From: Candidatus Gracilibacteria bacterium S5_H10
GTDB lineage: Bacteria; Patescibacteriota; Gracilibacteria; Absconditabacterales; Absconditicoccaceae
Length of the DNA: 64,000 nt
Assembly (NCBI GenBank): GCA_019248075.1
Contig: JAEHHG010000001.1
Span: forward strand, 9,294 to 73,293
Direction of reading: 5' to 3'
The stretch's first letter is position 1; each line of letters begins with the position of its first letter. Under the pieces are notes generated by a model that was not told the DNA's origin, made no database searches, and saw only the letters and a program-made list of their open reading frames with translations. The position numbers were made by a program, and so were the translations under genes. Shown here piece by piece: positions 13,220-56,837 of the stretch.

Positions 13220-13684
13220 TTATCTAGAAGCTATATACGCCAATCATAACGCATCAGCCGCATCATTAAATTCTGGAAAATCCTTGAGATTGTATAATTT
13301 CATGATACAATTTTGCACTAATTTCTTTTCTGCTTTTCCATTTCCTGTAATAAACTTTTTAAGTTCGATGGGAGAATATTCCTTTACCGTAATATTGTTT
13401 TTTAAACATAAGGTAATAAGTATGGCTCTAATACCGTAGACAAATTCTGCGTTGTTTTGATTAAATTTCGTGAAAAAAAGTTTTTCCATACACATGGTCT
13501 GGATAGTATGTTTTTTTATGAGTTGAGAAAAATATTCATATATCTCCCTCATTCTCTCAAACTGATCTATTCTGGTCGGAGATTTTTTTTCCAATAACAA
13601 AATACCTGAATCTACAATATTGAGATCTTTTTTGATCAACGCATATCATAATTTTCTTACTCATGGATCTATTCAGAGAATCAT
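13220..13684 (-). CDS. ruvC: crossover junction endodeoxyribonuclease RuvC
   Basis: MILGIDPGVRKLGYALI, with three Gly encoded by UGA, then ...TGNGKAEKKLV...NDAADALGLAY; ends at TAA 13220. Confidence 0.9.
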
Positions 13685-13742
13685 GCACCAATAAAATACA
13701 ATATAAAAACACCTATCGAAATCCTTTCTCTCGTCTTGGCCT

Positions 13743-13869
13743 CATGCCGGTGTTATTGTTTGCAACCGGCATCCATACAAAAGTGCGTTAGTAGCATAGA
13801 TGTGGATTCCGGCTGCAATTTCTTAACGCCGGAATGATGTACATGTATGAGGATGCCGGAATGATGTCC
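13743..13869. repeat. cluster of GC-rich palindromic miniature repeats (family 1)
   Basis: catgccggt-N13-accggcat; tggattccggctgcaatttcttaacgccggaatgatgt; gatgccggaatgatgtcc. Near-identical copies occur at 42317 and 21358. Confidence 0.65.
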
Positions 13870-13876
13870 TGCATTG

Positions 13877-14659
13877 TTAAAATAGGTCTTCAGTGATTCA
13901 AGACAATATTTCGTATCCATCCTTGGTTATAAGAATAGTGTATTCTCGTTGCGCTCAGATATCTTTGTTTTTACAATATAAGTTCCAATCATTTCCTGGT
14001 CTATATCAAAAATCAGTCGAAGTTACCGCAGTTATCGGTTCAAATGCTAAAACCATTCCTGGCTGAAAAAATATTTTTTTCATTTCTGGATTTGGCGTAT
14101 TGTAAATATAGGGTTTTTCATGTATATAATTTCCTACGCCATGTCAGGTAAGTTTCCCTAATACGGAGAATCAGGCATTGGTAATTATTTGATGTACACG
14201 ATGAGAATATTCAAAAATAGCTTGTCCCGGTCCAATATTTTTGATTGATTCATCCAAAGCTTTTTTGGTGACCTTTGCCAGTGCATATCATAACGGATTT
14301 GCAGCTTCTCATCAGACGACTACAGTAATCGCTGAATCAGTCACTCCGCCATTGTAGGTAATTCCACAATCAATCTTGAGTACATCTCCATTTTTCAATA
14401 CATAATCATCAGGGATTCCATGAACGACACAATCATTTACAGATAGACAGAGATTTGCTGGAAATCATTCATATCATTTAAACGATCATTTGAGATTGTT
14501 TGTCTTGATATAGTGCTCTGCTACGAATTCGAGTTCTATAAGAGAGATACCTGCTTTTACTTTTGTATGTAGCAGACGCAAAAGCGTTGTCAGATGCTTT
14601 CATGCTATCCTGATATTTTCAATTTGTTTAGCATTTTTTATTACTATTTCCTTTTGCAT
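13877..14659 (-). CDS. map: methionine aminopeptidase type I
   Basis: [24 protein letters not shown]...DVLKIDCG...GHGVG...FEPI...EYTILIT, which covers the metal ligands; many UGA-as-Gly codons; ends at TAA 13877. Confidence 0.9.
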
Positions 14660-20658: not shown

Positions 20659-20864
20659 ATTATACAAAAAAATAAATAAACCAGTTGAAATATATCTTTT
20701 TTTTTATAAATTACCAACAGATCGGTTTAGGTTAGTACGGATACGTCACAGAATATTCTGGTTGATCTACCAACACTAAAAAGGGAACCGTCATTCTGCA
20801 GGCATGACCTCCAGAAACAAAATCTGCTGATTTGAGCAGTACCCTCGCCGAGCGGGGGTTTTTT

Positions 20865-21716
20865 CTATTCTGCTATAACAAGTACTCATTTCTTTAACTG
20901 AATCAAACCTTCTTGCTGAAGACCTTTCACGATATTTTTCACTTCTTTGTGTGGGAATTCTTCTTGAACGTCTTGGACATGCAATGATCATTTTTTTACT
21001 AATTGTTTCATTATTCGTCAGCGGACTTGTCTATCAGAGCCTTCGAATTTTGATTGCTTAGATAATGATTTTATCTTGGTTTTTCTTGCGGTCAGCAATA
21101 ATGCTCATTGATCCATAAGTGCGTTGTGTCGATCACGAGACTTTCCTTTTGGAATGACTTTGAGTGCAAAAGCTTCAAGTTCTTTTGCTGTAATAGTTTC
21201 TGGTAGTTTGAACAAGAAAATCAAGACTCTCCTGATATTCGTATCGATCACCGGTACGGGTAAATTCCATGCAAATGCCATAATGGCTGCTGATGTGTAA
21301 GGGCCTATTCCTGGAAGCTTTTGTAGGGTATTTCTTAGTTGGTTGATCTGATTAGTGTGGATTCCGGCTCCAACACTTAACCCACGCAGTTCTGCGGGGC
21401 AGGCTGCCGGAATGACGTCGGAGACGATAGTTTTTGCACATTCTTGTAATCTTAGCACTCTCGAGTTGAATCATAATCCTGATCGATGACGGAGCAAATC
21501 TTGTTTTGAAGCATTCGCAAGTGATTGATAATCAGGAAAATCTTTCATTCGTTTATGAAAATAAGGAATCACCCTATCAACTTGTGTTTGCTGGAGCATT
21601 ACTTCAGAAATATGGATAGCATAAGGATTTTTTGTCTGCCTTCGAGGAAGTTTGCGGCCATTTTTTTCATATCAAGAAAGAATGCTTTGTTGTATTTTTT
21701 TGATATCTTGAGACAT
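20865..21716 (-). CDS. HhH-GPD base-excision glycosylase (MutY/Nth-like, without the Fe-S Cys cluster) with a C-terminal winged-helix-like extension
   Basis: PYAIHISEVMLQQTQV...LPGIGPYTSAAIMAFAWNLPVPVIDTNIRRVL...HNALMDQGALL. The UGA at 21105 is read through; ends at TAG 20865. Confidence 0.8.
21358..21420. repeat. family-1 palindromic repeat inserted in frame within the glycosylase CDS
   Basis: tggattccggct...ctgccggaatgacgtc has the same termini as the intergenic copies at 13803 and 42317. Its length is 63 nt (21 codons), encoding DVIPAACPAELRGLSVGAGIH. Confidence 0.6.
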
Positions 21717-42292: not shown

Positions 42293-42316
42293 TTTTGGTG
42301 TAAAGTAAAATTAGTA

Positions 42317-42353
42317 TGGATTCCGGCTGCATTTCCTTGGCGCCGGAATGAGG
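42317..42353. repeat. family-1 palindromic repeat
   Basis: tggattccggctgcatttccttggcgccggaatgagg is nearly identical to 13803..13840. Confidence 0.65.
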
Positions 42354-56716: not shown

Positions 56717-56837
56717 ACCATTCCAGCGTCATTCCGTTTCCTTTATTTTAACGTCATTCTCGCGAAAGCGGGAATCCATCTTGCTCTATAGCCCCAATTG
56801 GATTCCAGATCAGGTCGGGAATGACGTAATGTGGTTT
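56715..56837. mobile_element. MITE-like element, about 120 bp, with imperfect terminal inverted repeats (related to family 1)
   Basis: Left end ataaaccattccagcgtcattcc; the reverse complement of the right end is ataaaccacattacgtcattccc. An internal hairpin is acgtcattctcgcgaaagcgggaatcc. No ORF. Confidence 0.5.

Follow-up and report, generated by a model that had tools for sequence, protein, structure and literature searches.

Between the genes ruvC and map of the DNA analysed here, a spacer contains several short palindromes that differ from their surroundings in composition, which raises the question of what kind of element they represent and which gene belongs to them. In the following, "the window" is the whole stretch of DNA that was analysed (64 kb), and G000 is the genome from which it stems, a draft of 952 kb in 258 contigs that is 74% complete. 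A preliminary description of the window had characterized the palindromes as dispersed, GC-rich and hairpin-forming repeats of the REP or MITE kind and had suggested a RAYT/IS200-like transposase as a possible partner. All repeat pieces quoted there are present, at identical coordinates or within 1–2 nt of them, and the contrast in G+C content is real (about 50% in a unit versus 32% locally).

The genes around the repeats depend on the choice of the genetic code. An annotation with translation table 11 was discarded, because it gives no ORF longer than 251 aa in the 64-kb window, while UGA as a sense codon restores a dense gene map. UGA is found at the invariant Gly of the GyrA motif GKYHPHGD, and CGA at conserved Trp positions of MutY (LPWRQ and HxWSG, in the region of 21647 and 21488), where some congeners have TGG. 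The CGA codons of MutY fit the reassignment of CGA/CGG to Trp predicted for Absconditabacteria. Taken together, UGA=Gly and CGA=Trp indicate a CPR genome of the Absconditabacteria/SR1 type. The earlier notion of a small, streamlined genome is thus coherent under table 25 (UGA=Gly) only.

Structure, distribution and turnover of the hairpin units

The window contains six full, oriented hairpin units and two half-units. A unit begins with an unpaired 5′ head, followed by an 8-bp stem with AT start, the two arms of which are separated by a loop, and ends in a CCA tail; the stem occurs in the variants ATTCCGGC, ATTCCCGC or ATTCCCGA. The intergenic spacer that raised the question (13685..13876) is flanked by ruvC (13220..13684) and map (13877..14659), both on the minus strand under table 25, and holds two units and a half-unit at 13740..13865. 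The two units form a doublet with the heads pointing outward. Its left member, a variant-stem unit on the plus strand (13740..13775), has a CCTC head, the stem ATGCCGGT/ACCGGCAT, a 13-nt loop, and a CCA tail. The right member is a type I unit on the minus strand (13803..13839) with a CATC head, the stem ATTCCGGC/GCCGGAAT, a loop of 14 nt that is unpaired in the MFE fold, and a CCA tail. The half-unit (13852..13865) lies on the same strand 14 nt upstream of the type I unit and consists of the 5′ arm TCATTCCGGC followed by ATC.

Another type I unit on the minus strand (42316..42352; CCTC head, CCA tail) is flanked by two genes of the same strand. An I-long unit, i.e. a type I unit whose loop encloses a further hairpin, with a core of 57 nt, is located on the minus strand at 21357..21417, in frame within mutY. 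The second doublet of the window has convergent genes around it and also has its heads outward. It is composed of a type II unit on the plus strand (56752..56778; CGTC head, stem ATTCTCGC/GCGGGAAT, GAAA loop, CCA tail) as left member and a type III unit on the minus strand (56799..56826; CGTC head, stem ATTCCCGA with one mismatch, 5-nt loop, CCA tail) as right member. The type II unit is the CGTC-1/dRS3/NTS form, and 13 nt upstream of it lies the second half-unit, which begins with GTCATTCCG (56728..56740, plus strand).

Folding as single-stranded DNA was compared with that of shuffled sequences. The claim that all copies form hairpins holds for four of the six units, i.e. 13740..13775 (−8.0 kcal/mol, z = −3.0), 13803..13839 (−7.6 kcal/mol, z = −3.2), 42316..42352 (−10.1 kcal/mol, z = −2.6), and the type II unit (z = −2.5). 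It holds less well for the I-long copy in mutY (z = −1.5) and for the type III unit, which has the weakest fold of the six (z = −0.5) and is therefore a decaying copy.

Under table 25, mutY extends from 20865 to 21716 on the minus strand, and the I-long unit adds 21 residues in frame. The copy reads DVIPAACPAELRGLSVGAGIH, in agreement with an earlier remark about pseudo-peptides encoded by the repeats. In an alignment of 29 sequences, the 28 orthologues all lack the insert, and the length of this loop differs by as much as 37 residues within the genus, the shortest orthologues having 37 fewer. Located between the HhH motifs, the loop is a hot spot of insertions throughout the genus; in other genomes it carries inserts of the "VGANTIRL" and "KFQIQNS" types, which resemble other palindromic or low-complexity repeat families.

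For a census of the whole genome, a generic detector was applied that requires an 8-bp stem with AT start and allows at most one mismatch, with the reversed, uncomplemented genome as control. A stem criterion of 10 nt was too strict, because it misses the type I units. The detector found 29 units in the 952-kb draft genome and none in the control, and a strict pattern gave 14 matches versus 0. That 29 of 29 units have the 8-bp stem with AT start and no more than one mismatch follows from the detector criterion, under which the reversed genome yields 0. All detected units have xxTC ahead of the stem and CC behind it. The heads are CGTC (15 units), CCTC (7), CATC (3), TGTC (1), or others (3), and the CCA tail is present in 26 of 29 units. 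Type I, with the stem ATTCCGGC and a loop of 13–18 nt, has about 15 copies, and the I-long form, with a loop of about 41 nt, has five, i.e. the mutY copy and four others. Together they account for about two thirds of all copies. Type II has the loop GAAA and type III a loop of 5 nt; other variants are single or rare.

About ten plus/minus doublets with the heads outward were found in G000, their members being 12–60 nt apart, and a lone 5′ arm on the same strand precedes six or seven units. The pattern of half-unit plus full unit recurs at contigs C19 (10807), C180 and C217 (3068), at 56728 of the window, and in many congeners. The lone arm, TCATTCC[C/G]G, is situated 8–25 nt upstream of the full unit, and sometimes two or three arms follow one another; such arms occur at many sites in G006, G010, and G011. 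Some of them resemble a unit that has lost its loop and the larger part of its 3′ arm by deletion (arm + ATCC).

Based on a crude table-25 gene call, 24 of the 29 units are intergenic, and the mutY copy is the only confident intragenic one. The spacers of these units are unidirectional in 17, convergent in 3, and divergent in 4 cases, compared with a background of 60/16/24% of the intergenic bases. In spacers between genes of the same strand, nine units are oriented with and eight against transcription. A preference for convergent or unidirectional spacers, or for one transcriptional orientation, was therefore rejected, as neither exceeds the background. Searches of the window with Rfam at gathering thresholds and with a tRNA scan gave no matches.

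Units nested in the loops of other units were observed in congeners (G011:C11:14317-14373, G023:C2:42418-42463, G023:C3:19379-19435, and G003:C42:8245-8372), where type I loops also hold assorted further small palindromes. Units seem to land preferentially in hairpin loops. In G003, three units moreover follow one another in tandem, with a period of 48 nt.

Comparison of the orthologous map-ruvC spacers showed that units are gained and lost at orthologous sites among congeners. In seven congeners the spacer has a length of 10–38 bp and contains no unit. Five genomes (G000, G014, G006, G001, G010) have units only, mostly as doublets and otherwise as a same-strand pair or singly, and two (G009, G017) have a full cassette of hairpin, ssnA gene, and hairpin. 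The spacer of G014 has the same three-piece architecture as that of the window. Its variant-stem unit differs from the window unit 13740..13775 by 1 mismatch in 33, although the adjoining Map proteins are only 82% identical, suggesting that the units are constrained or homogenised, or that the site was hit twice. A second near-identical match to this unit is present within G000, in a doublet at C217:8636-8668. The map-ruvC doublet of the window could stem from a cassette by loss of ssnA, or could have moved as a pair of repeats alone. The spacers of a further five genomes (L162, L165, L169, L173, and L176 of G019, G020, G007, G024, and G044, respectively) are 470–505 bp long and contain neither an ATTCC-stem unit nor a detectable ssn homologue.

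The GIY-YIG nuclease gene ssnA as the probable partner of the repeats

The search for a partner gene began with the most repeat-dense regions of three congeners, G003, G006, and G013. Their densest clusters represent one syntenic locus with comEC, a gene of 94–97 aa, and a pyruvyl-transferase-like gene. The product of the small gene has a GIY-YIG domain (PF01541, E = 9e-16). The Ssn protein of the genus is 53% identical over 90 aa to a homologue of 94 aa from N. gonorrhoeae (E = 6e-35).

The Ssn nuclease and its NTS/SRM hairpins have been reported by Chenal et al. (2025, Nat Commun 16:2388; PMC11893778). That report states that SsnA of N. meningitidis (94 aa, cd10448) binds the NTS hairpin solely as single-stranded DNA, that NTS is a longer, oriented form of dRS3, and that the enzyme nicks the strand at a distance of a few nucleotides from the hairpin, on its upstream side; binding and cleavage are strand-specific, and neither dsDNA nor RNA is a substrate. 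According to the same authors, mutation of Y6, Y17 or E64 abolished cleavage, the system reduces transformation by NTS-bearing DNA, and motifs are present near 71% of the ssnA homologues, on both sides in 42%. The idea that the pairing of GIY-YIG gene and repeat constitutes a new REPtron for CGTC REPs was therefore abandoned, as the pairing had been published in PMC11893778, and the present analysis is an independent re-derivation, not a discovery. Y6, Y17, and E64 are invariant in 19 Ssn sequences of the genus.

All 13 close ssnA copies (clade 1, 94–98 aa) have ATTCC-stem units at a distance of 0–110 bp from the gene, 3–75 bp in most cases. Units are present on both sides of the gene in nine of the 13 copies, and seven have a strict heads-outward bracket. 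Around the distant (clade-2) GIY-YIG genes, ATTCC-stem units are lacking up to a distance of 1.5 kb; these genes have hairpin variants of their own at the corresponding positions, with ATTGC, ATCCT or ATTTC stems. The initial impression that clade-2 genes lack repeats was thus an artefact of searching for ATTCC stems only. Within clade 1, five proteins of the "KD/KY" kind are flanked by type I units only, and seven of the "NN" kind mostly by types II, III, and IV, so that Ssn sub-clades apparently match unit types.

The locus comEC-ssnA-pyruvyl transferase houses nine of the 13 close copies. In G003 (L043:2190-4271), G006 (L044:4186-6231), and G013 (L045:2283-4061), comEC is open under table 25 and contains 2–6 in-frame hairpin units at positions that differ between the genomes, with ssnA directly adjoining. 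In G003, the locus is also adjoined by a gene of 113 aa with a DUF559 domain (Vsr-like endonuclease fold; L043:1601-1942).

Matches to the strict pattern occur in 21 of the 30 genomes of the genus (G000 and 20 of its 29 congeners), with 0–33 per genome and none in any control. Close ssnA genes were found in 11 of the 16 genomes with at least four units versus 0 of the 14 with three or fewer (raw genome counts that ignore kinship). The five repeat-rich genomes in which clade-1 ssnA was not detected are all fragmented assemblies, and G000 is one of them. Its assembly (74% complete, 258 contigs) yielded no clade-1 ssnA and no comEC, the apparent comEC matches being repeat-encoded peptides only. 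The assignment of an enzyme to the ATTCC-stem units of G000 is thus derived from the congeners.

The sole ssn gene of G000 belongs to clade 2 and is split between two contig ends (C1:76069-76203 and C225:3505-3654), which makes C1 and C225 neighbours. ATTGC-stem hairpins enclose the gene on both sides, the upstream one about 26 nt from the ATG and the other directly behind the stop codon. In five congeners (G006, G007, G013, G014, G043), a hairpin-bracketed clade-2 ssn gene follows directly after mutY. At this place, a short way downstream of the mutY stop codon (20865), the window has a 19-nt palindrome (GTCATGCC..AGAATGAC; 20800..20820, minus strand), which may be the scar of a lost ssn cassette.

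For comparison with other lineages, 185,579 species genomes were scanned with the alignment of the protein, and 80 loci from many phyla were obtained. A CGTC hairpin is present within 200 bp of the gene in 48 of the 80 loci. The hairpin density is 3.3 per kb within this distance and 0.19 per kb further out, i.e. 17-fold lower. A bracket of a left plus-strand and a right minus-strand hairpin exists at 24 of the 80 loci, in contrast to 0 in the reversed-sequence control. The pairing of ssnA with the repeats is thus tight and specific, in the genus as well as across phyla. Proximity to comEC was rejected as a general trait, because comEC is nearby at only one of the 80 loci from other lineages, which is that of a close relative.

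Proposed function and alternative explanations

We conclude that the units are probably Ssn recognition hairpins of the CGTC-tagged REP/SRM (NTS) class. When DNA becomes single-stranded, e.g. during replication, repair or DNA uptake, a unit would fold into a hairpin. The recognition site would comprise the hairpin, the head, and the C after the stem, and the enzyme would be the single-domain GIY-YIG nuclease Ssn of about 94 aa. By analogy with the work on Neisseria, the SR1 enzyme is predicted to bind and cut these hairpins and to act on single-stranded DNA such as incoming DNA. The ssnA gene of the genus resides between two heads-outward units, mostly at the fixed comEC-ssnA-pyruvyl transferase locus. 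From there, units would have spread to the spaces between genes, where they often form heads-outward doublets, and now and then in frame to tolerant protein loops, as in mutY here and in comEC of congeners.

The preliminary description had suggested a RAYT as a possible partner. Small palindromes, inverted doublets, and a mostly intergenic location are indeed REPIN-like, and 15 of the 30 genomes of the genus contain Y1_Tnp genes. However, G000 has no match to Y1_Tnp (PF01797), and in the genus Y1 genes occur at equal frequency in repeat-rich genomes (8 of 16) and in repeat-poor ones (7 of 14), with none above the cut-off in the genomes that have the most repeats (G003, G011, G001). In addition, the head is CGTC and not GTAG, and no RAYT flanked by CGTC repeats was found in PMC3733652. 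The gene that travels with the units is that of the GIY-YIG nuclease Ssn, and we consider classical REP/REPIN elements moved by an IS200/IS605-type Y1 transposase to be very improbable. An equally slim likelihood is assigned to MITEs, i.e. internally deleted DDE or IS110-type insertion sequences that are moved in trans. Units are short, dispersed, and variably present at orthologous sites, as MITEs would be, but at 24–57 nt they are well under MITE size, no target-site duplication is apparent at the window copies, G000 has no IS110 DEDD transposase (PF01548), and the only gene found to be bracketed by units is that of the GIY-YIG nuclease. A full-length IS with units as its ends was not found in eight repeat-dense regions of three congeners. 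From the alternative "REP or MITE", the first part can thus be kept, the units having every mark of the CGTC-tagged REP superfamily; a MITE in the strict sense (IS-derived, with TIRs and target-site duplication) is not supported.

The hairpins could also be signals at the RNA level, i.e. terminators or stabilisers of mRNA 3′ ends, with a secondary link to Ssn. Most copies lie between genes, often 10–60 nt from a gene end, and 3′-UTR effects of E. coli REPs have been reported (10.64898/2026.03.23.713779). Nevertheless, the hairpins are not followed by a T-run, the spacer classes track the background, the orientation relative to transcription is unbiased, some copies lie within coding sequences, and the window has no Rfam match. 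Furthermore, SsnA is inactive on RNA (PMC11893778). Such a role as the main function therefore appears improbable, albeit less so than the two kinds of transposition. Artefacts of assembly or binning, such as collapsed contaminant reads from a repeat-rich proteobacterium, might be suspected, as Proteobacteria commonly have the same hairpin sequence and the MAG is fragmented (258 contigs). The units are, however, located inside contigs amid genes that depend on UGA=Gly, with copies on 11 such contigs, and one of them is in frame in such a gene. The architecture of the map-ruvC doublet is matched at the orthologous site of the independent genome G014, and the family is present in 20 of 29 congeners. 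The likelihood of an artefact is thus practically negligible.

If the units are Ssn recognition hairpins, the system of the genus might moreover be wired into DNA uptake, with the enzyme processing incoming single strands at the hairpins. The position of nine of 13 close ssnA genes beside comEC, the gene of the single-strand DNA import channel, and the three comEC genes with 2–6 in-frame units point in this direction, but we regard this extension as speculative and rather unlikely. Such strand processing would serve nucleotide salvage or limit recombination, and the type I unit and the Ssn sub-clade that it always brackets would form a new pair of enzyme and site specificity.

The assignment to the Ssn/SRM system links the repeats of a recoded CPR genome of about 1 Mb to a system with a known enzyme, and explains the spurious "VIPA/WIPA" peptides and some of the contig breaks of such MAGs. 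Patescibacteria are thereby added to the lineages with an Ssn/SRM pairing. The genus represents a compact natural experiment, with 30 species genomes, each with 0 to 33 matches to the strict pattern, at least two nuclease clades with hairpin variants of their own, and orthologous spacers that are empty, contain units only, or contain the whole cassette. The question of how the hairpins are copied, and of any role of Ssn in it, thus becomes more accessible to comparative genomics and simple biochemistry. The type I unit and the matching Ssn sub-clade could also bring a new specificity to the toolbox of nucleases for single-stranded DNA.

Comparison with known repeat systems

The units are a new example of a known and widespread class of elements and not a new kind of element. 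The class was described by Di Nocera, De Gregorio and Rocco (2013, BMC Genomics 14:522; PMC3733652) as CGTC-tagged REPs with the families CGTC-1 and CGTC-2. This superfamily has a CGTC, TGTC or CCTC head, a stem of 8–9 bp with AT start, a loop of 4–5 nt, and a CCA tail. It includes dRS3 of Neisseria and RPE-6/RPE-4 of Rickettsia as well as some exceptions with other loops; no associated transposase or partner was reported. The units described here share the heads, the 8-bp stem with AT start, the CCA tail, the inverted dimers, the lack of association with RAYTs, and the mostly intergenic location with occasional in-frame copies in DNA-repair genes. Type II, with its 4-nt loop, fits CGTC-1, and type III, with its 5-nt loop, fits CGTC-2. 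In contrast, the loops of type I (13–18 nt) and I-long (about 41 nt) exceed the 4–5 nt of the superfamily, the doublets are heads-outward, and the phylum is new.

Housekeeping proteins that tolerate a palindromic repeat in frame in one of their surface loops, like MutY here and ComEC in congeners, are also known from the Rickettsia palindromic elements. RPE-1, however, is about 100–150 bp long and has a different sequence, and G000 has only one confident in-frame copy. The REPIN-RAYT systems of Pseudomonas and Enterobacteria have inverted hairpin doublets and one nuclease gene that is inherited vertically, mostly sits at a single locus, and has the repeats on both sides. This is a likeness of arrangement; the enzyme described here is of the GIY-YIG and not of the HUH/Y1 type, and the head is CGTC and not GTAG.

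The closest similarity is to the NTS/SRM-SsnA system described in PMC11893778. The CGTC head, the ATTCC(C/G)G stem, the C after the stem, and the orientation are common to both, as are the architecture hairpin-ssnA-hairpin, a single-domain nuclease of about 94 aa that retains Y6, Y17, and E64, and separate nuclease clades with separate hairpin variants. Types II and III conform to the NTS consensus given there, with GTC ahead of the palindrome and C directly behind it. To our knowledge, the host phylum is not among the four that were used there to refine the motif. The copy number is about 29 in G000, with 0–33 strict matches in congeners, compared to hundreds in Neisseria. Cutting by Ssn is a prediction from homology in the genus. 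Several features are modestly new, i.e. the CPR host with UGA=Gly and CGA=Trp, the apparent match of Ssn sub-clades and unit types, and the long-loop type I unit, which is the main type here and in whose loop of 13–18 nt a second hairpin or further small hairpins are often found. The same holds for the position of ssnA beside comEC, which is fixed in the genus and not in other lineages, and which distinguishes this system from the known NTS/SRM-SsnA pair.
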